This document shows positions 11,572 through 21,452 of a stretch of 64,000 nt of DNA, piece by piece. Made by a program: the position numbers and the translations under genes. The DNA lies in contig QZJM01000020.1 of NCBI GenBank assembly GCA_003605065.1, positions 19,562-83,561 of the forward strand. The letters run 5' to 3'. The first letter of the stretch is position 1; each line of letters begins with the position of its first letter. This stretch comes from Dethiobacter sp. Its GTDB lineage: Bacteria; Bacillota; Dethiobacteria; DTU022; UBA8154. The notes beneath the pieces were generated by a model, which saw nothing but the letters and a program-made list of their open reading frames with translations, made no database searches and had not been told where the DNA came from.

Positions 11572-13281
11572 ATGGTTACTTTGCGTGTTGTATATACTTC
11601 TTTGAAAAAGCAGCTATCCTGGGAAGACCTGGACCTTGTCTCGCTGCTCAATTACTTTCGCTACTGCTCTTTGCTTGTTACTTCTTTTTTCTACTTTATG
11701 GGGCCTCCGTTTGTTCCTTTTTACCTTAAGGCAGGGGCATCTTTCTGCCTGTTCCTGGAGGCCTTCGTTTTTATCAGGGTCTACAAAGAAAATGAAGGTA
11801 GGTGGGTTAGAAAACTTTTAATCTTCATGGAAACCATTGGCCTGGCCTTTATCCTGATTCTTACGGGAGGGCTGGACAGTCCTTTCCTCTGGTACGCCAT
11901 CAACCCTATCCTTCTCGCTGTTACACTATTACCGGTATATTTCTGCTGGGCCATGGTCGCTGTCTTTCTCTCCTGTGCCCTTTTTTTGCAGAGGTTTACT
12001 CTTTACGGACCGGAAAATGCCCTGCCGCTGTGGCCCAATCGCTCCATATTCTTCCTGATTTTTTTTCTCAGTACTTTTGCGGCCCAGATATTTAACTATC
12101 TTATCCGCAGGCTTTCCCGGCAGGCCAAAATCATGGAAAAACAGCTTAATCATATCAAGTCTCTTTACGAAGCCATCGAGGTTTTTTCTCATCACAACGA
12201 TCCCCAGGAAGTTGCCAACCTTTTCGCTTCCTACAGTAGGACCCTGACCGGGGCCAACAAGGTAATTGTCTGGGTGGAAGGGCAGTTTGGTGCCAATGAC
12301 CCGCTGAAGAAAAATTTTTACTCAGTACGGGGCCCCATGGAGGTCCTCTCCGAGGACAGCTGGTACCCCTATATCAAGCGTATGTTTGAAGAGAGGAAAA
12401 CCGGCCAGGAAATAGATATTCACAGGCTTCCCTCGGGTTCGCACCAGGGCCTGGGGACTCTTATCACCGTAAAAGTTAAATCCAGTTCCAATATCTTCGG
12501 TGTGCTTTCTGCCTATTACCTGAACAACCGGGAAAACATGGACGAAGTAAAAAACACCCTTACATTTTTGGCAGATCTCTGCGCCGGGGCCCTGGAAAAA
12601 CGTTTCCTGGAATCCCTGGCTGAGGAGTTTTTGCTGGTAGAAGAAAAGGATCGTATCGCCGGCGAGATTCACGACAGCGTAACCCAGAATATTTTCGGGC
12701 TGGTTTACGGGTTGGATATGCTGATCAAAAAAGAGACTCTTGATGAAGCCGTGCGTATGCAGCTCAAGCTCCTGCAGAAAACGGCCCAGAGAAGCCTTAG
12801 GGATCTGAGGCTGTCTATTTACTGCATGAGCACTCTTAAAAGCAAGACGGAGCCCTTCGTGGAAGAGGTAAAAAAATACCTCACCGACCTCGGGCAGCTT
12901 AACAATGTAGACGTAAAATTTAGCTGTAACGACGGTTTCGGACCTGTTAACTCCCTGACGAGAAAATCTCTTTACCGCATCATAAGAGAGGCCACCGGAA
13001 ACGCTATTCGTCACGGCGGGTGCGACAGTATCCAGGTTTTTTTAAAGTCACACGGGAACAAGCTTAAACTTACTGTCGCCGATAATGGCTGTGGTTTTGA
13101 ACCCACCGCCGTGGAACAAAAGGGAAAGTTTGGACTGGGCCTTGTTAACATGAAGGAACTGGCCAGAAACATAGGAGGAGAACTAACCATCGAGAGTGTG
13201 CCGGGGAAGGGAACGGTAATTTCCTGTGAAATTCCCCAGGGTCAGGAAAGAAAAGTTTCTAGCGGAGAAAGGAGGGGTTGA
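11572..13281 (+). CDS. sensor histidine kinase of the NarL/DegS-type class (membrane domain, GAF-like domain, HisKA_3, HATPase)
   Basis: 5-6 N-terminal TM segments, an H-box EEKDRIAGEIHDSVTQ and HATPase motifs NAIRHGG...DNGCGF...GLGL. Confidence 0.85.
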   Translation: MVTLRVVYTSLKKQLSWEDLDLVSLLNYFRYCSLLVTSFFYFMGPPFVPFYLKAGASFCLFLEAFVFIRVYKENEGRWVRKLLIFMETIGLAFILILTGGLDSPFLWYAINPILLAVTLLPVYFCWAMVAVFLSCALFLQRFTLYGPENALPLWPNRSIFFLIFFLSTFAAQIFNYLIRRLSRQAKIMEKQLNHIKSLYEAIEVFSHHNDPQEVANLFASYSRTLTGANKVIVWVEGQFGANDPLKKNFYSVRGPMEVLSEDSWYPYIKRMFEERKTGQEIDIHRLPSGSHQGLGTLITVKVKSSSNIFGVLSAYYLNNRENMDEVKNTLTFLADLCAGALEKRFLESLAEEFLLVEEKDRIAGEIHDSVTQNIFGLVYGLDMLIKKETLDEAVRMQLKLLQKTAQRSLRDLRLSIYCMSTLKSKTEPFVEEVKKYLTDLGQLNNVDVKFSCNDGFGPVNSLTRKSLYRIIREATGNAIRHGGCDSIQVFLKSHGNKLKLTVADNGCGFEPTAVEQKGKFGLGLVNMKELARNIGGELTIESVPGKGTVISCEIPQGQERKVSSGERRG

Positions 13282-13285
13282 TTGT

Positions 13286-13921
13286 ATGAGGATCGTTATT
13301 ATTGATGATCACCCCGTGGTACGCCAGGGCGTGCAGCAGACCCTGAGCCTGGAAAAGGAAATGGAAGTTGTAGGCACAGCCAGTTCCTGTCCGGATGGAG
13401 TGGAGCTGATCAACGCCCAGAAACCAGATATGGCCATCGTGGATATGAAAATGCCCGGCGGGGGCGGACTGGAGCTGATCCGCCAGGCCAGGAAACTGGT
13501 ACCACAGTGCCGTTTTATTATCCTCTCCTCTTACGCTTCCCACCGGGAAGTCTCAGAGGCCGTTTCTGAAAATGTGGAGGGCTATATCCTCAAGGAAGCC
13601 CTGCCGGAGGAACTTATTGCCGCTGTCAGGCTCGTGGCCAGGGGCCGCCGTTATTATGATCCGGAGATCATGGACAGCATTGTGAGCAAAGAAGAGAAGG
13701 ATCCCCTTAAAGATCTTACCGGCAGGGAACTGGAGATCCTCCAGGCCCTGGCTGAGGGGCTGAACAACAGGGCCATAGCGGAAAAGCTCTATATCAGTGA
13801 GAACACGGTCAAAAAGCATATCTGTAACCTTCTTGATAAGATGGAGTTTAATGACCGCACCCAGGCGGCCCTTTATGCTTTTTCCCGGGGGCTGAGCAAG
13901 GAACAGGGTATTTCTGAATAA
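13286..13921 (+). CDS. LuxR/NarL-family response regulator (DegU-like)
   Basis: REC domain (MRIVIIDDHP...IVDMKMPGG) plus a C-terminal HTH (LTGRELEILQALAEGLNNRAIAEKLYISENTVKKH). AGGAGGGG RBS. Confidence 0.9.
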   Translation: MRIVIIDDHPVVRQGVQQTLSLEKEMEVVGTASSCPDGVELINAQKPDMAIVDMKMPGGGGLELIRQARKLVPQCRFIILSSYASHREVSEAVSENVEGYILKEALPEELIAAVRLVARGRRYYDPEIMDSIVSKEEKDPLKDLTGRELEILQALAEGLNNRAIAEKLYISENTVKKHICNLLDKMEFNDRTQAALYAFSRGLSKEQGISE

Positions 13922-13991
13922 GCCGGCAGGCCGCCCGGCCCGGCTAAATCATTAGAGACTTGATAAAGAGAAAATATATCGGCTCTTTAAA

Positions 13992-14021
13992 AACACCAGG
14001 CAGCTGAATGGTGTTTTTTTT
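13992..14021 (+). terminator. rho-independent terminator after the two-component operon
   Basis: AACACCA...TGGTGTT stem with a 10-nt loop, followed by TTTTTTTT. Confidence 0.7.
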
Positions 14022-14281
14022 ATCTGTTAGGCCGCATTTTTACCATAATATATTTTGTAATTCATAACTTTTTCTTCATATAAAAGTGTGGTCTTAAGCG
14101 TAGAAATATTGTTGAAAAAAGAATTTTTTTATTCCGTACTACTTTGGGATTATTTATAAATCATCATTTCTGCCCATAAAAATTAGTTTTAAGCGTAATG
14201 TCTTTTTTGGCGTAACAGTTTAAAATCATAGTAGAAACCAGGATGGTTTTTTAAGAGACTATTAATGCACAAACCGCGATT

Positions 14282-14710
14282 ATGCACATGCAGGCTAATA
14301 GCGTAGCGGCTATTCTTGACCCCGGCGAAAATATTATCGTAGGGGTGGAGGGAACGATAGGTAACATTTCCTTTAGCGGGACCGGCTGCATTAATGTACT
14401 GGGGGAAGAGCAGCAAAAATCGGAAAAAGAAACACCAGGAGAGGAAGAAGAATTGGAAGAAGAGGAAGAGACCGGGGACAGCCTGGTTATGCTCTCCGGT
14501 AAGCTTGCCGGTGAAGTTCCTGACGATAACGGAACAGGCGGGGATCTTGAAACTGGCGACGGAGATAGCGGAAAAAACGAGGTGCTCAATACCGGTTCCG
14601 GCGAAGTTTCCGGAAAAGATGATAAGAGCATCTGGCTGGAGCAGTCCTCGGCACTATTAGAAGGTTTACCGGTACTAATCGATAACAGCAATGACGGTCT
14701 CACGGACTGA
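14282..14710 (+). CDS. acidic repeat protein. The ORF is interrupted by an in-frame TGA at 14708-14710, and the same frame continues with a conserved motif up to the TGA at 14801.
   Basis: Gly/Glu/Asp-rich. Contains copies of an LSG-LPV-ID-NG motif that also occurs in the SipW C-terminal tail. The alternative basic frame was rejected. The start codon is uncertain. Confidence 0.4.
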   Translation: MHMQANSVAAILDPGENIIVGVEGTIGNISFSGTGCINVLGEEQQKSEKETPGEEEELEEEEETGDSLVMLSGKLAGEVPDDNGTGGDLETGDGDSGKNEVLNTGSGEVSGKDDKSIWLEQSSALLEGLPVLIDNSNDGLTD

Positions 14711-14799
14711 GAAGAAAAGGCTTTCGAACTGCTGCAGGGTTGGCCTGTGATCATTGAGGATGACGCCGGTGATTTTAGGGCAGTAAGGTGGGGGATACG

Positions 14800-16098
14800 A
14801 TGAACGATAAGCTGGGAAAAAATAAAAATCAAAAAAAGGAACAAAAAAGACCGGGGGCCCTGGTCCGCATGTTCGGAGTTTTGGGCAATATAATTTTTGT
14901 TTTAATGCTTCTGGTAATGTCGGCGCTGGTATTTTTTCTGGTACAGAGCAAGATCGCGGGAAACCCCCCCGGCGTGGCGGGTTACCAGATGCTCATAGTT
15001 ATCAGCGGCAGCATGAACCCCACCTTCGATACGGGGAGCGTGGTATTTGTGCGACCAATGGACCCAAAAAACCTTGCTGCCGGGGATATTATTACTTTTA
15101 AGGGTTCCGGGGGAAGCGACAAATTAACAACCCACCGGATAGTGGACGTGCATACGGAAGACGGCCTTGGTTTTACCACCCGCGGGGATGCCAACAATGT
15201 CAATGACCCGAACATAGTTCCGGCCCGAAACGTAGTCGGGAAAGTGGTCCTGGCCATACCTTATGCCGGCTACCTGTTCAATTATGTGCAGACCAAAGAA
15301 GGTTATATAGCTTTAATCCTGATACCCGGAGTGCTGATCATTTTTACGGAGCTGTACAAGCTCCTTAAATATGCCAGGCAGGTTGACAAAAAAGAAAGCA
15401 CCGGAAAGAAGGACAAAAGACTGGCTTCCGGAAAGCATCCAGAGGAGGCGGCAGCTGAAATAGAAAATGAAGAGGACGAAGCTGCCCTGCCCGGCGGGGA
15501 AGAACCGGCATTTGTTCCCTATTACGCTCATAAAGCAGGGTTTACGGCAGGTAATTATGAGAATGCTGACTACCCGGTCAGCCAGGTCCGTGACAGGCGT
15601 GAGAATGAAGTTAAAGAGGTGCTGGAGAAAGAAAAAATAATAGCTGCTGTGAAAAAAACTGCCGCAGTGGATGAATTAGCTTTTCTAAATAAAGCTGCGG
15701 TTGTGGATAAAACTGCCGTAGCAAATGAAGCTGCCGCTGTGGATGAAATAGCCGCTGTAGATAAAACTGACATCATAAAAGAAGCTGTCATTCTAAAAGA
15801 AACTGCCGTCGTAAATGAAGCTGTCGTCATAGATGAAATAACTGTTCTAGATAAGATAGCCGCTCTCCCCGCCCAGAGCAGCGAATTCACCCCCGTGACC
15901 AGCCGTAAGCCTTACCACGGCGGGAATGAAGAAGCCAGGGAAAAAATTTGGAGAGAGCGGGCTTTTGCCATCTTGAGCGGTCTGCCCGTGGTTGTGGATG
16001 AAAATGGAGAAGAAAGGGTCTGGAAAGAGCGTGCCTTCGCCATGCTGAGCGGTTTGGCCGTGGTTATTGATGATTCCGGGAAAGAAGAGGTTAGCTAG
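14800..16098 (+). CDS. sipW: SipW-type signal peptidase I (S26B, archaeal/ER-type) with a roughly 240-aa C-terminal repeat-rich extension
   Basis: N-terminal TM segment, catalytic box VISGSMNPTFDTGSVVFV and a second TM (GYIALILIPGVLIIF). AAGGTGGGGG RBS. The extension contains Ala/Val/Asp-rich tandem repeats and two WxERAFAxLSGLPVVxD motifs. Confidence 0.8.
   Translation: MNDKLGKNKNQKKEQKRPGALVRMFGVLGNIIFVLMLLVMSALVFFLVQSKIAGNPPGVAGYQMLIVISGSMNPTFDTGSVVFVRPMDPKNLAAGDIITFKGSGGSDKLTTHRIVDVHTEDGLGFTTRGDANNVNDPNIVPARNVVGKVVLAIPYAGYLFNYVQTKEGYIALILIPGVLIIFTELYKLLKYARQVDKKESTGKKDKRLASGKHPEEAAAEIENEEDEAALPGGEEPAFVPYYAHKAGFTAGNYENADYPVSQVRDRRENEVKEVLEKEKIIAAVKKTAAVDELAFLNKAAVVDKTAVANEAAAVDEIAAVDKTDIIKEAVILKETAVVNEAVVIDEITVLDKIAALPAQSSEFTPVTSRKPYHGGNEEAREKIWRERAFAILSGLPVVVDENGEERVWKERAFAMLSGLAVVIDDSGKEEVS
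15640..15860 (+). repeat. in-frame tandem nucleotide repeats (about 30-60 bp units) encoding an AAVDE/AVVNE-type low-complexity segment inside sipW
   Basis: Seen in the sequence: units such as aaaactgccg-agt-gatgaa-tagc recur about six times. Confidence 0.6.
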
Positions 16099-16102
16099 CC
16101 CT

Positions 16103-16360
16103 ATGACCCAAAGAATCATGGTAAGTATAACAATCCTTACGCTTATGGCGGTGCTGATCGGCGGCGCCACCATGGCCTGGTTTACAGCCCAGGCGGAAAT
16201 AACCGATAACGTATTCCAGGCCGGGACACTGACCATTGACGCACAAGAAACGTGGGCATACGAAAGCGGGCCGTTGACTAACTGGAACCCCGTTTTCAAC
16301 GGGACAAGCAATAAAAACCTCAAAATTGGGGCAGGACTGCTGCAGGGTATGCCGGAATAG
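16103..16360 (+). CDS. short TasA/camelysin-family secreted protein with a SipW-cognate signal peptide
   Basis: Its signal peptide ends in GGATMAWFTAQAEITDNVFQAGTLTID, the SipW-cognate class. It lies immediately downstream of sipW. It is only about 86 aa, against about 260 aa for TasA. Confidence 0.6.
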   Translation: MTQRIMVSITILTLMAVLIGGATMAWFTAQAEITDNVFQAGTLTIDAQETWAYESGPLTNWNPVFNGTSNKNLKIGAGLLQGMPE

Positions 16361-16678
16361 GTGATATCGGCAATGCACCTGTATTTATGGAAACAAGGGA
16401 CATTAAAGGGTTTTTTTAAGGAAATACATTGAAAATTGTAAAAATCTGCAGGAATTTACATTACTTTCATCGAACTAAAGCATCAGAAAACGGTGGAAGA
16501 GAATGACGAGCTTTAGAGTTGCAGGGGCAAATAGGTTTTAATCTAAGGATCCCGGCCGGTGTTACCGGGACGACCGGAACCTGGTACAGCATGCCTTCTA
16601 CCGAACGTCAAAAAACCCTTTTTATTTCTTATAGAGCACCTGTTATTTAAAAAAATTAAAGCGGGCGGTGTAAAAAAA

Positions 16679-18820
16679 ATGGAGCGGAAGAAGCGTCTGG
16701 ATGAAATACATGGGCAGATCATGGAGCTTAAAGATCGTTTTAAACATTTGGGCTACAGGCTGATCCAAGAGGGGGAAAGACTTAAAAACCCCGGTTGTCC
16801 GCCGGACGATGTTCTCTTTCAGGAGGTTGCGGAGGAGACCAAAAAATTTAAACTCCTGACGGAAAAACTGGCAGCGGCGGGAAGAGCATTATCCTGGTCC
16901 GGGCTTAATGGCGGAGTTGATTCCCTGGACAAAATGGAGGAAATGTGGAAAGGTCTTGCCGGGCATTTAACCTACCTATATGTACTGGAACAACAAACGG
17001 AGCAGGCCATTGCTCTTGTTAAAAGAGCTATGCAAGCAACCCTGCCGGGAAAACAATTATCGGCAGAACTGGAGTCTTTCAAGAAAAAACTGCGCTATTA
17101 CGAAGAAGTTCTTTCCCGGAATGTGGATGATGAAGAAGCGGCGGAAATGCGCCGCCAGTTCTTGACGGGGGTTCACCCCCTGATCGCTTTTTTAAGGCTG
17201 GCGGAGGAGTACCTGGGAGACCATGAAGAAGCTTCAGAACTTTTTCTGGTGTCAGCGCGGGAATTTGGAAACTTGCTTACCGTAGCAGCGGCAAGGGGAA
17301 ACCTTATTCTTCCTCAGTCAGATCAAAAAGGTGCAGAAAGAAATGAAGAGGAAGTAAAAATAAAATACGAAGCAAAAAAGGTTAAAGAAGTAGAAAAAAA
17401 GGAAAGCGGAAGTAAGAGTTACAGCGGTTATTTAGATGAAATGAATGTCGAACCGGTGGCCGGCAGGAAGCTGAATCAGCGTGAGAGGCTGGTAGAGCAG
17501 ATCTTTAACCTGATCAGGGATGGTAAGCTGGGACCGGCTTTTTGGCTGAATTGTTACTGTGAACAGGTATGGGAAAAGGCGCCGCTGCCTTCCTGGCTGA
17601 TAAAAGCCGTAGAGATTGCGGAAGTTGTCGAAGGCGATGGCGGCGTGGCCGCCGGATGGCTTTCTTACATTTACAAGCACAATAATTTTGAGAGCCTGCT
17701 GGAAAAGAAAACTGGAGGAGAAAATAAGTTGGTGTTCAGTCTTTTCTCAGCTGCTTCCCTGTTGAGACCGGCCCTGGTGGCACCCGGAAGTGGTGCACCT
17801 CTCCTCCTGAAAAAAATAGGTGGTCTGCCCGGGGGTATTCAGGAACTCTGCGCTGTGCTGGCCGGTAACGGGGAGCAGGTTGGATTGGATTGGAAAAAGG
17901 AATTACAGGCGCTCTCCCACGAGGTAACGACCTGGCAGAAACGGAACCAGAAGTTGACCCTGGCCTCCCCCCTGGCGGTAAAGTTATGGGAGAAGATGCA
18001 GGAAGAAGGAGAATTACTCTATAAACTCCTGCAGCCTGTGAAAGAAAACGCAAAGGGTGCCCTAGAAGATATCCGCATGCTTGTCTCCTACCTGCGTGAA
18101 GAAAACAATCTCAAGAAGGAAGTGGCCGATCTTTATTACGGAATGCAGGATTCAAAAGAGTCCCTGGAAATTTTCCATATACCTGGGTCCTGGCAGGTGC
18201 TGGCCCGTTTAAGAGAGGCTTTAAAGCTGGCTGAACGCTGGTTAAAGCTCCACGAGAGAATTACCAAAAATAAGGAAGCAAGAACTCCCCAGAAAGATGA
18301 TTTGCGGGAACCCCTGTTGTCAGCCAGGAAGGACCTGGAGGGGGCGGCCAGGAAGTATGGGGATGATACCATGGTTAGTGCGGGAATCGCTTTATGCGAG
18401 CGTGTGTTTGATTCCCTGGAAAAATATTTTCAGGAAAGAAGGACGGAAATTCCCACAGCAGAAGTACTGTCTGCTCTGGAGTTGAGCAAGAACCCCCAGT
18501 TGAAACTTAAACCATCCTGGAAGCCTAAAGCAGAAACTGTGGAAAAGCTGGGAAAAGCCCTGGTGGAACTTTTAAATGAAGGAGAAGTAAATACCGGAAA
18601 GGCAGAGACAAAAAACGATGATCTGGAATTTGCTGTGAGAAAAGAGGCCGGCACTTATAATCTTTCGAATAACGATACAGCACTTCCGACCCCTAATCTG
18701 AGAAAGACGTGGGAAAGAGATGAAGTATTATCACCACAGGAACGGGATTTTTTAATGAACACCCTGAGAAGCTTTTATAAGGAAAGAACCGAACAGCAAC
18801 AAGACTTAAATGAAAGCTAA
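16679..18820 (+). CDS. large hypothetical soluble protein (about 713 aa) with no domain I recognise
   Basis: Long ORF, Glu/Lys-rich and predicted helical. Its stop overlaps the start of the next gene, which suggests translational coupling. The track ORF begins at 16559, but MERKKRLDEI at 16679 is the first plausible start. Confidence 0.55.
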   Translation: MERKKRLDEIHGQIMELKDRFKHLGYRLIQEGERLKNPGCPPDDVLFQEVAEETKKFKLLTEKLAAAGRALSWSGLNGGVDSLDKMEEMWKGLAGHLTYLYVLEQQTEQAIALVKRAMQATLPGKQLSAELESFKKKLRYYEEVLSRNVDDEEAAEMRRQFLTGVHPLIAFLRLAEEYLGDHEEASELFLVSAREFGNLLTVAAARGNLILPQSDQKGAERNEEEVKIKYEAKKVKEVEKKESGSKSYSGYLDEMNVEPVAGRKLNQRERLVEQIFNLIRDGKLGPAFWLNCYCEQVWEKAPLPSWLIKAVEIAEVVEGDGGVAAGWLSYIYKHNNFESLLEKKTGGENKLVFSLFSAASLLRPALVAPGSGAPLLLKKIGGLPGGIQELCAVLAGNGEQVGLDWKKELQALSHEVTTWQKRNQKLTLASPLAVKLWEKMQEEGELLYKLLQPVKENAKGALEDIRMLVSYLREENNLKKEVADLYYGMQDSKESLEIFHIPGSWQVLARLREALKLAERWLKLHERITKNKEARTPQKDDLREPLLSARKDLEGAARKYGDDTMVSAGIALCERVFDSLEKYFQERRTEIPTAEVLSALELSKNPQLKLKPSWKPKAETVEKLGKALVELLNEGEVNTGKAETKNDDLEFAVRKEAGTYNLSNNDTALPTPNLRKTWERDEVLSPQERDFLMNTLRSFYKERTEQQQDLNES

Positions 18821-21386
18821 AGAGAAAGGAATGATTAATTCCTTGCCTTCTCCTATCAATGCTACGGGAATACTTTTACACGGCAGCTTGAAGGAGCCTC
18901 CTCTTGCCGAAGAGGCCTTAAGGGCCTTAAATTCAGAGGCTTATTCTTCGGCGGGGTTTAAAAAGGCTGCCGGTTCGGATTATTACTCCTACAGGCAGCT
19001 GGAAGAACTTATTTGTACCCTCACGGAAGCTGAGGATGTCCTGGTGGTTAATAACCTCATGGCGGCGGCCTTTCTAGTTTTCCATACCCTGGCGCGGGGC
19101 AGGGAGATTATTGTTTCCAGGAGGGATCTGCACCAAAATGCTTTTTCCGCTTCCCTGGCCGGGGTTGCCCAGAGTTGTGGGGCATACCTGAAAGAAGTGG
19201 GAGGGAAGGAAACCGCCGCACCCGGGGATTATCAGGGTGCTGTTACGGAGCAGTCGGCCCTGTTTTTGACGATTAACAGTCTGGGCAGTTCTAAAAGGGA
19301 AGCTTTCCATGAAGGTATGCCTGCCGGCTTGGGGAAGCCTGAGCTGGCAGTGGTGGGTATTCTTGATAATGCTGCGCTGCTGGATCTGGCACCTTTCGGG
19401 CTGCCCGACGTGCTGCAGGTCCAAAAGCTGATCACCGGAGGGTTTGACATTGTTGTTTTTAGGGGCGATAAGCTCCTGGGAGGGCCCCCGGCAGGAATTA
19501 TAGCCGGAAAAGGCAGGTATCTTTCCCTGCTTAAGCAGGCAACGCTGGCTTCCGCTTTAAGCGCTGGCAGGATCGATAGGGCGACGCTGGAAGCGACTTT
19601 GGCATTATACCTGGACAAGGAAGAGGCTCTGAAGAAAATCCCTTTGCTGAGCATGATTTCGGCGCCACCCCCCCGTATTGAAAAACGGGCCTGGAAACTT
19701 GTTGAAGAGCTGAAGGATTCACTGGAAGGGGTGTTTAATATCAGTATGACTGCCGGGGAAGCCCATATCACTGAGGAAAGCAACGGTCTGGGGGCACTCC
19801 CCAGTTTTCAGGTGTCTATCAGTTCAGAGAAGCTTTCTGCCGCTCAGATTTCTGAACTGCTGACTAAAGGTAATCCACCGGTAATTCCATGTGAATTGAA
19901 AGAGGCGATTTTGCTTGATCTCAGATCTGTCCAGGAAAAAGAAGATGATCTTTTACTTAATTCCATACTTGATTCCCTGGGAGGAGACCGCAAGGAAATC
20001 CGGGTGCTCGATACAGTTCCCAGTCCCATCTGGACGTTAAATGAAGAGAATACCTTTATTTATGCCAACAAAGCCTGTGAGAATTTCTGGGGGTTGGAGA
20101 ACAGCAGCATCTTAGGTAAAGCAATAAGTGAGATTCTTGCCCCGGGAGAGGCAGGAGCCTTATTAAAGAGTATAAAGACGGTAATGAAAAGCAAAGAAAA
20201 AATCGCCATCGAACTAAAGATGAAATCTTTTGGGAACAAGGATAAATGGATGGATATTATTCTTGTACCGCTCTTAAATGGTCAGGAAGAAATTTCCGGG
20301 GTTACATTTACGGCGCATGATGTTACAGAGCGCAAGCGTACTGAAGAAGAATTGAAATATATCAGTATGCATGATTCACTGACGGGTCTTTATAACCGGG
20401 TTTATTTTGAAGAGGAGATGCGTCGGCTAAACACTCACCGGCACTACCCCCTAAGCATTATTGTCTGTGATGTGGACGGTTTGAAGTTTACAAATGATAT
20501 CCTGGGACATGAAAAAGGAGACAAGCTTTTAAAGACGGCGTCTAATCTTATTAAAAAGCCTTTTCGTACATCCGATGTGGTGGCCAGGGTAGGAGGAGAC
20601 GAGTTTGCCATTATTCTGCCCCGGACCAATGAAAAGACCGCGGAGGAGATCTGTGAACGTATAAAAAAGAATGTCGAAAAATACAACCAGGAAAAGAAAG
20701 GTATTCCCTTGAGCCTTCCCCTTGGTTTTGCCACAGGAGAAGAGGCCTCCGGGGGAATTCTGGAAATATTTAAAAATGCGGACAGCAATATGTATAAAAA
20801 TAAATTTGCCCATGGCAAAGCAGTGAAAAGGCAGGTTTTTGAATCTCTGCTGGAAATTCTGGCGGAGAAAGACTTTATGAGCAAGAGTAAAGCAGAACGA
20901 CTGCAGGAAATGCTGCTGTTGCTTGGACAGGCTGTGGGGATGTCACCGGGGGAAATAAAAAATATTTTATTGCTGTCCAGGGTATATGATATTGGCAAGG
21001 TGAATATCGATGATTCCATTCTCTTTAAAGAAGGAGCGTTAAGTGACGCAGAGTGGGAGGAAATTAAACGCCACCCGGAAACAGGTTATCGTATTGCCCG
21101 TTTTTCAGCGGAAATGAACCCCATCGCCGATTTCATTATGCAGCACCATGAATGGTGGGACGGGAATGGTTATCCTGCCGGCTTAAAGGGGAAGGATATC
21201 CACCTTTACCCCCGCATTTTGGCTATTGTGGACGCCTATCAGGCCATGACCAGTCACAGGCCTTACAGGGAGCTACTTTCCCGTGAAGAAGCCATTCAGG
21301 AACTGAAGAGATGCAGCGGAATTCAGTTCGATCCCCGGCTGGTAGAGATCTTTATAAACTTAATCGACCAGGAGAACTTAGTTTAA
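18810..21386 (+). CDS. multidomain signalling protein: degenerate SelA-like domain, PAS, GGDEF (diguanylate cyclase) and HD-GYP (c-di-GMP phosphodiesterase)
   Basis: The N-terminal roughly 300 aa align to selenocysteine synthase SelA (VLVVNNLMAAAFLV...REIIVSRRDL...FRGDKLLGGPPAGIIAGK...RATLEATLALYL). A PAS domain follows. The GGDEF domain carries RVGGDEFAIIL. The HD-GYP domain carries HHEWWDGNGYPAGLKG. An alternative start is the ATG at 18831. Confidence 0.85.
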   Translation: MKAKEKGMINSLPSPINATGILLHGSLKEPPLAEEALRALNSEAYSSAGFKKAAGSDYYSYRQLEELICTLTEAEDVLVVNNLMAAAFLVFHTLARGREIIVSRRDLHQNAFSASLAGVAQSCGAYLKEVGGKETAAPGDYQGAVTEQSALFLTINSLGSSKREAFHEGMPAGLGKPELAVVGILDNAALLDLAPFGLPDVLQVQKLITGGFDIVVFRGDKLLGGPPAGIIAGKGRYLSLLKQATLASALSAGRIDRATLEATLALYLDKEEALKKIPLLSMISAPPPRIEKRAWKLVEELKDSLEGVFNISMTAGEAHITEESNGLGALPSFQVSISSEKLSAAQISELLTKGNPPVIPCELKEAILLDLRSVQEKEDDLLLNSILDSLGGDRKEIRVLDTVPSPIWTLNEENTFIYANKACENFWGLENSSILGKAISEILAPGEAGALLKSIKTVMKSKEKIAIELKMKSFGNKDKWMDIILVPLLNGQEEISGVTFTAHDVTERKRTEEELKYISMHDSLTGLYNRVYFEEEMRRLNTHRHYPLSIIVCDVDGLKFTNDILGHEKGDKLLKTASNLIKKPFRTSDVVARVGGDEFAIILPRTNEKTAEEICERIKKNVEKYNQEKKGIPLSLPLGFATGEEASGGILEIFKNADSNMYKNKFAHGKAVKRQVFESLLEILAEKDFMSKSKAERLQEMLLLLGQAVGMSPGEIKNILLLSRVYDIGKVNIDDSILFKEGALSDAEWEEIKRHPETGYRIARFSAEMNPIADFIMQHHEWWDGNGYPAGLKGKDIHLYPRILAIVDAYQAMTSHRPYRELLSREEAIQELKRCSGIQFDPRLVEIFINLIDQENLV

Positions 21387-21452
21387 TTTATTCAAGTTTA
21401 CGGGTTTTAAGGTAGAGACAAAAATGTGTCAGCCGTAAGGGAGTGAAAAGAA

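Follow-up and report, generated by a model that had tools for sequence, protein, structure and literature searches.

The in-frame TGA that interrupts a small acidic reading frame directly upstream of sipW in this Dethiobacter species is probably an ordinary TGG-to-TGA nonsense mutation that became fixed in the lineage, rather than a recoding device. The stop lies on a conserved tryptophan of a repeated motif: in a gap-free alignment the other three motif copies all have TGG at this column, as the preliminary description of this DNA had proposed. The window, i.e. the whole stretch of DNA that was analysed, comprises 64,000 nt, and the features considered here are listed in Table 1. Past the TGA, the frame of the ORF continues through 30 sense codons (EEKAFELLQGWPVIIEDDAGDFRAVRWGIR) to another TGA (14801-14803); this stop and the sipW ATG (14800-14802) overlap as ATGA. 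On re-reading the sequence, the coordinates given earlier for the ORF, its TGA, the 30-codon continuation and this overlap all turned out to be correct.

Table 1. Coordinates of the acidic ORF, the in-frame TGA, sipW and associated features within the window.
Feature	Position	Strand	Remarks
Terminator-like hairpin and T-run	13989..14018	+	Inverted repeat I1, 15-nt arms, then TTTTTTTT
Acidic orphan ORF, 142 aa	14282..14710	+	ATG at 14282; stop TGA 14708-14710
Motif copy B (KSIWLEQSSALLEGLPVLIDNSNDGL), translated copy	14624..14701	+	E 4.6e-5, HMM from SipW copies only
In-frame TGA on the motif Trp column	14708..14710	+	Putative ancestral codon TGG
Post-TGA segment, 30 open codons and terminal TGA	14711..14803	+	Motif copy C (EEKAFELLQGWPVIIEDDAG), then tail DFRAVRWGIR
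Shine-Dalgarno of sipW (AGGTGGGGGA)	14786..14795	+	Inside post-TGA frame; 4 nt before ATG
sipW-type signal peptidase I, 432 aa	14800..16098	+	TIGR02228, 130.5 bits vs cut-off 51.85
Motif copies 1 and 2 (EKIWRERAFAILSGLPVVVDENGEE / RVWKERAFAMLSGLAVVIDDSGKEE), SipW C-terminus	15940..16089	+	Tandem pair
Truncated tasA/camelysin-like gene, 97 aa	16067..16360	+	SipW-dependent signal peptide

The product of the acidic ORF has a pI of 4.05 and no transmembrane segment, and it is annotated as a hypothetical protein in a Dethiobacter sp. metagenome-assembled genome (MAG). Its codon-usage score was 0.27 in frame, compared with -0.18 and -0.36 off frame, on a scale where real genes have a mean of 0.34 (sd 0.07). 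An antisense ORF of 197 aa covers the whole feature (14251-14844), but with a score of -0.17 it was set aside as an artefact that the acidic sense frame produces. No Shine-Dalgarno match was found for either ATG of the ORF (0 kcal/mol, the median of the other genes being -7.2 kcal/mol), nor was a sigma-70-like promoter found upstream on the + strand. The ORF matched no NCBIfam or Pfam family, TapA included, and possesses no hydrophobic segment of the kind found in a TapA-like signal peptide (maximum 19-residue hydropathy 1.08). Since the terminator-like hairpin stands 3′ of an upstream LuxR-type response-regulator gene, the ORF and sipW appear to form the start of a new transcript.

The motif is 24-26 aa long. 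Two tandem copies stand at the end of the ORF, the translated copy B and copy C beyond the TGA, and a second tandem pair is found at the SipW C-terminus (W-to-G cores at 15949-16008 and 16021-16080). The two SipW copies were identical at 13 of 19 residues. Copy B shared 8-9 of the 19 residues with them and copy C 9-10, making the untranslated copy the one in the ORF that is closest to SipW. In a leave-out test, 3,048 six-frame segments from the window and from a second strain, L001, were screened with an HMM that had only the two SipW copies as input. Apart from these copies themselves, it matched copy B best (IWLEQSSALLEGLPVLIDNS, E 4.6e-5), followed by the post-TGA segment (E 2.7e-3), and the next match reached only E 0.13. 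BLASTP with composition adjustment, using the ORF with W at the stop against the SipW tail, aligned the tandem pairs colinearly (19/44 identical, E 1e-10), and none of 100,000 residue shuffles of the post-TGA copy attained its observed score against the other three copies. The similarity is thus not a compositional effect, a concern that the preliminary description had raised. Of the copies listed there, the SipW pair, copy B and the post-TGA copy were recovered, while SLVMLSGKLAGEVPDDNG was not significant (0.4 bits). Between copies, codon positions 1 and 2 were better conserved than position 3.

A profile search with the motif among 1.84 billion representative proteins matched only the two self proteins. 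The HMM hunt for a motif family that had been suggested therefore revealed no family, the motif being confined to two adjacent proteins. When the ORF, the tail and the motif were compared with Pfam, NCBIfam and the PDB, the sole outcome was a sub-threshold similarity to the CBS domain (PF00571, 14.2 bits against a gathering threshold of 24, E 0.057, 15 profile positions). This candidate was rejected, and no CBS proteins were found among the PDB matches. The motif may be a protein-protein contact element that joins the soluble protein and the SipW tail. The AlphaFold2 model of the last 70 SipW residues had a mean pLDDT of 55.7, too low for use; at this low confidence, each repeat might consist of a helix and then a short strand.

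The post-TGA segment had a codon score of 0.25, which just 1% of off-frame 30-codon windows reach. Its coding-type codons, together with its position as the closest match to the SipW copies, suggest that its translation ceased only recently or persists at a low level. Codon usage, the likeness of copy C and the conservation of codon positions 1 and 2 point to long selection at the protein level, followed by a recent stop. With Trp at the TGA, the junction reads ...NDGLTD-W-EEKAFELLQGWPVIIEDDAGDFR. The segment showed no substitutions between the two strains; at about 1-2% divergence this is expected by chance over 90 nt with P about 0.2-0.3 and is not significant.

L001 (Logan SRR22388160) is an independent assembly from a different sample and is 98.6% identical to the window. 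The difference of about 1.4% consisted of many SNPs and indels; among the indels are one of 186 nt and, at the junction, one of 3 nt. L001 carries the TGA as well (at 672-674, matching 14708-14710), and its extended frame retains the stop-start overlap, as TAATG where the window has ATGA. A sequencing or assembly error hiding a true TGG codon was among the options considered in the preliminary description. A single-base change from a sense codon in a MAG would be enough to produce it, but the TGA was found in two independent assemblies from different samples and strains and is located outside any homopolymer, and we regard such an error as highly improbable. The same description had also proposed a very recent nonsense pseudogene. 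A nonsense mutation of TGG finds good support in the paralogous copies, but the mutation predates the split of the strains and is in this sense not very recent.

Database relatives of the ORF were limited to copies from the same species, with cluster members of 142, 142 and 140 aa. Searches of 5.8 billion and of 1.84 billion proteins and scans of contigs brought up no diverged orthologue, and conservation of the stop and extension could be followed in one other available strain (the 98.6% identical L001), which has the same TGA and extension. Since neither an intact 173-aa version nor a TGG allele was found among the cluster members or the searched proteins, we infer the ancestral TGG from the paralogous copies only. 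Metagenome contigs gave 0 matches to a degenerate codon pattern across the TGA, allowing any codon at the stop, and 0 matches to an exact 38-mer from sipW. A scan of genome contigs with SipW detected a single distant locus in Bacilli (30% identity), with no orthologous context.

The preliminary label of the downstream gene as SipW-type was borne out by its TIGR02228 score (Table 1); against the Bacillus SipW equivalog NF046067 it scored 145.5 bits, under the cut-off of 190. The protein is 100% identical to RJX27992.1 from a Dethiobacter sp. MAG. In the catalytic core (SGSM, THR and GDAN), residues S71, M72, H112, R113, G129, D130 and N132 were invariant in 88 homologues, the window protein included. 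Transmembrane segments with basic flanks span residues 18-55 and 167-190, and the C-terminal tail of about 240 aa is cytoplasmic. A second, regulatory role has been reported for SipW (Terra et al. 2012, J Bacteriol 194:2781, as cited in PMC4551309 and PMC4292775). The Shine-Dalgarno of sipW forms a duplex of -8.4 kcal/mol with the anti-Shine-Dalgarno, so sipW needs no coupling to the upstream frame.

In the closest relatives of the SipW peptidase domain (45-64% identity), from Dethiobacteria and Candidatus Contubernalis, SipW is fused behind a receiver domain and an acidic linker. This N-terminal receiver domain and linker occur in nearly all closely related SipWs and are missing from the window SipW, which has 68 residues before SGSM, compared with 174-608 in relatives that are at least 40% identical. 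A tblastn search of 13900-17000 with the N-terminal 145 residues of a relative detected no receiver-domain remnants upstream of sipW. In phmmer and BLASTP comparisons of the ORF with 88 SipW relatives bearing N-terminal extensions, only the window's own SipW tail was similar. Downstream, the tasA-like gene matched TIGR04088 with 32.6 bits (cut-off 19). Its PF12389 match covered positions 4-50 of 196 and no more, and residues 1-63 alone aligned with the 207-aa protein of a relative. The whole HK-RR-ORF-sipW-tasA' block is missing from the syntenic site in relatives; its GC profile showed no compositional anomaly. Given the absence of the block in relatives, the truncated tasA-like gene and the missing receiver domain of SipW, the surroundings look like a fast-changing accessory island.

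Signals for recoding were sought around the TGA. The hairpin CAGG-GUUGG-CCUG (14735-14747) has 4 bp and lies outside the minimum-energy fold; the fold of 14700-14805 was no better than shuffles (z 0.12), and Rfam gave no match at E<=1 in 13900-16700. The preliminary description was right to dismiss this hairpin as a SECIS element. Selenocysteine insertion, or a UGA reassigned as in genetic code 4 or 25, could draw on the in-frame UGA and on this hairpin, with GU in its loop and 24 nt downstream. However, the aligned residue in all three paralogous copies is Trp (TGG) and not Cys, no SECIS is present, TGA terminates 9 of the 35 long ORFs in the window, and ORFs of 1230 and 1297 aa are intact under table 11. 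Both possibilities are effectively refuted. No tRNA genes, hence no tRNA-Trp, were found within the window. A scan for other in-frame coding pairs separated by a stop yielded adjacent same-frame genes and antisense artefacts and was uninformative.

According to the explanation that we favour, the ORF would be, or would until recently have been, a real protein-coding gene restricted to this Dethiobacter species. Its ancestral product would have been a strongly acidic cytoplasmic protein, 173 aa long and with a tandem motif pair at the C-terminus, encoded by a frame whose stop overlapped the sipW start (ATGA). One G-to-A transition would have changed the Trp codon of the second motif copy from TGG to TGA, and would have reached fixation ahead of the split between the two strains sampled. 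At present, translation would normally stop at codon 142, presumably with good efficiency, to give a product with one motif copy, and any Trp inserted at the UGA would probably reflect mere background leakiness. The 30 downstream codons would be a young relic with its decay still ahead, and translation of sipW would continue from its own strong Shine-Dalgarno. We favour this course of events because the stop falls gap-free on the W column, one transition away from the TGG of the other copies, and because a second strain, assembled independently, shares the TGA. It is further favoured by the use of TGA as an ordinary stop with no stable structure or Rfam match, by the post-TGA coding signature that points to a recent stop, by other lineage-specific losses (the tasA-like truncation, the loss of the receiver domain and the absence of the block), and by sipW having its own Shine-Dalgarno. 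Expression of the ORF counts as predicted, and the lack of a recognisable ribosome-binding site weighs against this explanation.

The better preservation of copy C than of copy B, its unchanged sequence and the retained overlaps are also expected from continued low-level translation. As the preliminary description had also considered, the UGA might be read through. Decoding at a useful rate by a near-cognate tRNA-Trp would give a 142-aa isoform with a single motif copy and a 173-aa isoform with two, and ribosomes that read through and ended on the sipW start would couple the translation of sipW to that of the upstream gene. Trp at this position would rebuild the motif exactly, and tRNA-Trp(CCA) can decode UGA in bacteria (PMC13092985). 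The open frame of 30 codons after the TGA has coding-like codon usage, holds the better-conserved motif copy and is identical in both strains, and its stop-start overlap is present in both despite the 3-nt indel. Against this, a 30-codon open run arises by chance in about 24% of cases, (61/64)^30, finding 90 nt unchanged is not significant, no downstream structure or known element was seen, no diverged orthologue with a conserved stop and extension was found, and the window holds no tRNA gene. Nor is the stop on the Trp column evidence for recoding, since a TGG-to-TGA mutation puts it there automatically. Read-through of UGA as Trp is neither supported nor refuted, with nothing specifically in its favour, and we consider a functional role for it unlikely.

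It also seems improbable to us that the whole ORF is a dead relic of a rearranged cytoplasmic SipW extension, silent on both sides of a TGA that is one among several lesions of a decaying accessory island. Such an origin would account for the missing Shine-Dalgarno at both ATGs and the missing promoter, for the lack of homologues outside the species and for the truncation of the adjoining tasA-like gene; moreover, the relatives have an acidic linker fused before SipW at the position of the ORF. The derivation from that linker draws on position and composition only, and the ORF has no detectable similarity to the relatives' receiver domain or linker. Its 142-codon part has codon usage in the range of real genes (0.27), and a frame of 151 codons is open. 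Synonymous and non-synonymous differences between the strains stood at 3:2 in the ORF, a count too small to show selection; sipW (8:4) and a downstream 713-aa gene (11:6) had this same ratio.

As a fixed nonsense mutation, the TGA would give a clear-cut case of a species-specific gene with a premature stop. Its main bearing would be on annotation: what is listed as a 142-aa ‘hypothetical protein’ would be a truncated 173-aa gene, and the adjoining tasA-like gene is also truncated. The UGA would matter more if it proved to be a maintained leaky stop. We suggest, with considerable doubt, that the lineage swapped the relatives' N-terminal receiver and linker for the tandem motif on the SipW tail and an acidic partner, with the UGA as a maintained leaky stop. 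If true, the UGA would determine how much of the one-motif isoform is made relative to the two-motif isoform, and would couple the translation of sipW to read-through. To our knowledge, very few chromosomal cases of functional UGA-to-Trp read-through are known from bacteria. The receiver-linker-SipW fusions point to a phosphorylation-linked control of a biofilm-matrix signal peptidase, for which no description was found in the searched literature.

In the coat gene of phage Q-beta, UGA read-through yields the A1 protein. This case and the decoding of UGA by tRNA-Trp(CCA) resemble ours in having a UGA where Trp restores the protein and a coding-like extension. Unlike Q-beta, the extension here is 30 codons long, has no known stimulatory context and was seen in one further, near-identical strain, and nothing tells this TGA site apart from a plain mutation. 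The B. subtilis operon tapA-sipW-tasA likewise has a small gene before sipW within one transcription unit, a gene with a SipW-dependent signal peptide after it and a SipW with a cytoplasmic C-terminal tail, the part in which its regulatory role reportedly lies. Unlike TapA, the product of the ORF lacks a signal peptide, a transmembrane segment and any TapA similarity, the SipW of the window has a tail of about 240 aa that bears lineage-specific repeats, and its tasA-like gene is truncated. The receiver-linker-SipW fusions share a long acidic cytoplasmic region near SipW, followed by a Peptidase_M73 (TasA-like) gene. They differ from the window, where the extension of SipW is C-terminal, the receiver domain is absent and the acidic region is a separate ORF in another frame. 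Nonsense-truncated genes of bacterial accessory loci show the same one-step transition in a Trp codon, with an intact-looking frame downstream, fixation in the lineage and degraded neighbouring island genes (here the tasA-like gene). Unlike in those genes, the ancestral state is read here from paralogous repeats, and the shortened product, with one motif copy left, may still be functional.

The acidic ORF directly upstream of sipW in this metagenome-assembled Dethiobacter sp. genome corresponded to RJX27991.1, annotated 'hypothetical protein', and the feature reported at its end in the preliminary description was real and accurately described. Its product was strongly acidic (pI 4.05; 33 D+E versus 6 K+R) and had no hydrophobic segment. 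Neither of the two candidate ATGs had a Shine-Dalgarno match. Past the terminal TGA the frame remained open up to a second TGA, which shared bases with the sipW ATG (ATGA), and the strong Shine-Dalgarno sequence of sipW (-8.4 kcal/mol) was located within this post-TGA frame. A 197-codon antisense ORF on the minus strand (14251-14844) spanned the whole feature including the TGA. Its codon score of -0.17 marks it as an artefact arising from GAR richness in the sense frame.

Features of the locus, in window coordinates
Feature	Position	Length	Remarks
Direct repeat GT(C/T)TTAAGCGTA	14091-14102 and 14186-14197		Copies 95 nt apart, in AT-rich region upstream of the ORF
Upstream ORF	14282-14710	142 residues	Terminal TGA 14708-14710
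Open frame past TGA 14708-14710		30 codons	Terminal TGA 14801-14803
sipW	14800-16098	432 aa	SipW-type signal peptidase
tasA/camelysin-like gene	16067-16360	97 codons	Residues 1-63 align to 207-aa relative, rest absent

SipW was 100% identical to RJX27992.1, matched TIGR02228 with 130.5 bits (cut-off 51.85) and had invariant catalytic-core residues. Its two transmembrane segments (18-55 and 167-190) had basic flanks, so the positive-inside rule predicts a cytoplasmic location for the 240-residue C-terminal tail. Tandem repeats of 18 nt (6 aa), rich in Ala and Val, were found in the tail (15689-15838). The same locus was recovered from a different strain (L001; Logan, run SRR22388160) with 98.6% identity. 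L001 had 3 nt inserted where the ORF meets sipW, and a 186-nt in-frame insertion after 15865, in the SipW tail, the length of which is thus polymorphic (432 vs 494 aa).

The tail ended in a tandem motif pair, WRERAFAILSGLPVVVDENG and WKERAFAMLSGLAVVIDDSG. A leave-out HMM was built from these two copies alone and searched against 3,048 six-frame segments from the window and the second strain. The top non-self match, IWLEQSSALLEGLPVLIDNS (copy B, E 4.6e-5), lay at the end of the ORF. The post-TGA segment, EKAFELLQGWPVIIEDDAG (copy C), was also matched (E 2.7e-3), and the match after it reached only E 0.13. An additional copy that had been proposed, SLVMLSGKLAGEVPDDNG, scored 0.4 bits and was not significant. 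The likeness was not compositional, since the tandem pairs of the ORF and SipW aligned colinearly with composition adjustment on (BLASTP E 1e-10) and 0 of 100,000 shuffled post-TGA peptides attained the true summed score against the other copies. In a gap-free alignment the TGA occupied a column in which the remaining three copies had TGG, which agrees with the placement of the stop on the conserved Trp in the preliminary description. Identity to the SipW copies was 9-10 of 19 residues for copy C, as against 8-9 of 19 for the translated copy B. When the copies were compared with one another, conservation was higher at codon positions one and two (23-27/38) than at position three (8-10/19), and the motif has therefore been kept by protein-level selection while synonymous sites drifted.

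The family that the preliminary description hoped to find with the motif consisted of SipW and the ORF themselves only, when a profile of the four copies was searched against 1.84 billion representative proteins. The 173-residue read-through product, used as a query, matched only a same-species 142-aa protein; lengths within the ORF protein cluster were 142, 142 and 140 aa. Pfam, NCBIfam and PDB gave nothing above threshold. A CBS-like match was sub-threshold (14.2 bits vs 24), and the AlphaFold2 model of the tail was unreliable (mean pLDDT 55.7). Two products of adjoining genes, one a soluble cytoplasmic protein and the other a membrane peptidase with a cytoplasmic tail, both carried the motif in tandem at the C-terminus. 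This placement suggests a shared interaction element, the two proteins binding each other or a common partner.

The simplest account of the stop, and probably the correct one, is plain nonsense truncation. On this view a lineage-specific gene of 173 codons lost the Trp codon of its second motif copy by a G-to-A transition (TGG to TGA) that was fixed before the two strains split; what remains is a product of 142 aa, followed by a young relic of 30 codons. In the ORF frame the 30 post-TGA codons had a codon-usage score of 0.25, which is the 26th percentile among true coding 30-codon windows and is attained by only 1% of off-frame windows; their translation ended recently or continues. The zero substitutions between strains in the post-TGA 90 nt decide nothing, as this is expected by chance at 1-2% divergence (P about 0.2-0.3). 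That the whole ORF is a dead relic seems unlikely; strain differences in its 142-codon part (3 synonymous, 2 non-synonymous) were too few to test, in a ratio matching those of sipW (8:4) and the 713-aa gene (11:6). The position of the stop on a conserved Trp is not evidence for recoding, because any nonsense mutation of a Trp codon looks so. In bacteria, tRNA-Trp is known to decode UGA as a near-cognate codon (PMC13092985); this would restore the original protein, so that some full-length product is plausible. Maintained read-through, in which such a product would be under selection, is a doubtful explanation; the comparison covered two near-identical strains.

Sequencing error, which had been offered as one source of the TGA, is very improbable, as the identical TGA was present in L001, assembled from a different strain. 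Selenocysteine or a changed code is more improbable still. TGA terminated 9 of the 35 long ORFs of the window, the paralogous residue was Trp and not Cys, and a 106-nt stretch taking in the stop and its downstream flank folded no better than shuffled sequences (z 0.12). The four-pair hairpin was outside the minimum-energy structure, and the doubt already expressed about it as a SECIS element was justified. Rfam gave no match at E<=1 across 13900-16700. Most likely the feature is an ordinary one: an orphan gene has acquired a premature stop, and the biofilm-matrix locus around it is degrading.

In four related genomes the syntenic site had an ABC-3 permease gene directly 5′ of the 713-aa gene homologue. 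The block of histidine kinase, LuxR-type response regulator, ORF, sipW and shortened tasA-like gene (11572-16360) is therefore lineage-specific; no GC anomaly was detected over it. We regard it as a fast-changing accessory block.

The L001 tasA-like gene had insertions of 8 nt and 1 nt. The non-coding stretch between this gene and the 713-aa gene (16361-16678) was hypervariable between the two strains, with 32 substitutions plus indels per 318 nt versus about 1% in flanking genes. Both sites of the direct repeat were kept in L001 with one substitution per copy; the LuxR-type response regulator whose gene lies immediately upstream (13226-13921) is a candidate for binding there. Further downstream (18810-21386), an 858-aa protein had a SelA-like PLP domain (PF03841, E 7.6e-61) fused to PAS, GGDEF and HD-GYP. 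Relatives (L007, L010, L011 and L013) conserved this architecture and the pairing with a preceding 6xx-aa Pfam-less gene. A 250-266-aa methyltransferase gene was found between the SelA-like-GGDEF and ketoacyl synthase genes in L001 (7560-8312), L007, L010 and L013, and was missing from the window strain at the corresponding 21387-21452.

The closest SipW relatives, 45-64% identical over the peptidase domain, came from Dethiobacteria, Candidatus Contubernalis and other Bacillota. In nearly all of them the protein began with a receiver domain (PF00072), a long acidic linker joined this to the peptidase, and the C-terminal tail was only short. Nearly all of the relatives P0003-P0067, with loci L003-L005 (6001-7032), had these parts in a single polypeptide; the linker was acidic, low-complexity and 100-450 aa long, and phospho-acceptor sites were degenerate in some receiver domains. 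Such fusions were not described in the searched literature, and arguably deserve more attention than the stop codon. The gene after the relatives' SipW encoded a 207-aa Peptidase_M73 (TasA-like) protein, to which only the first ~63 residues from the window's 97-codon gene aligned. Unlike its relatives, the window SipW lacked a receiver domain, and a tblastn search for remnants was negative. The linker position was occupied by the separate acidic ORF, with no detectable similarity to the linker, and the cytoplasmic extension was at the C-terminus of SipW instead.
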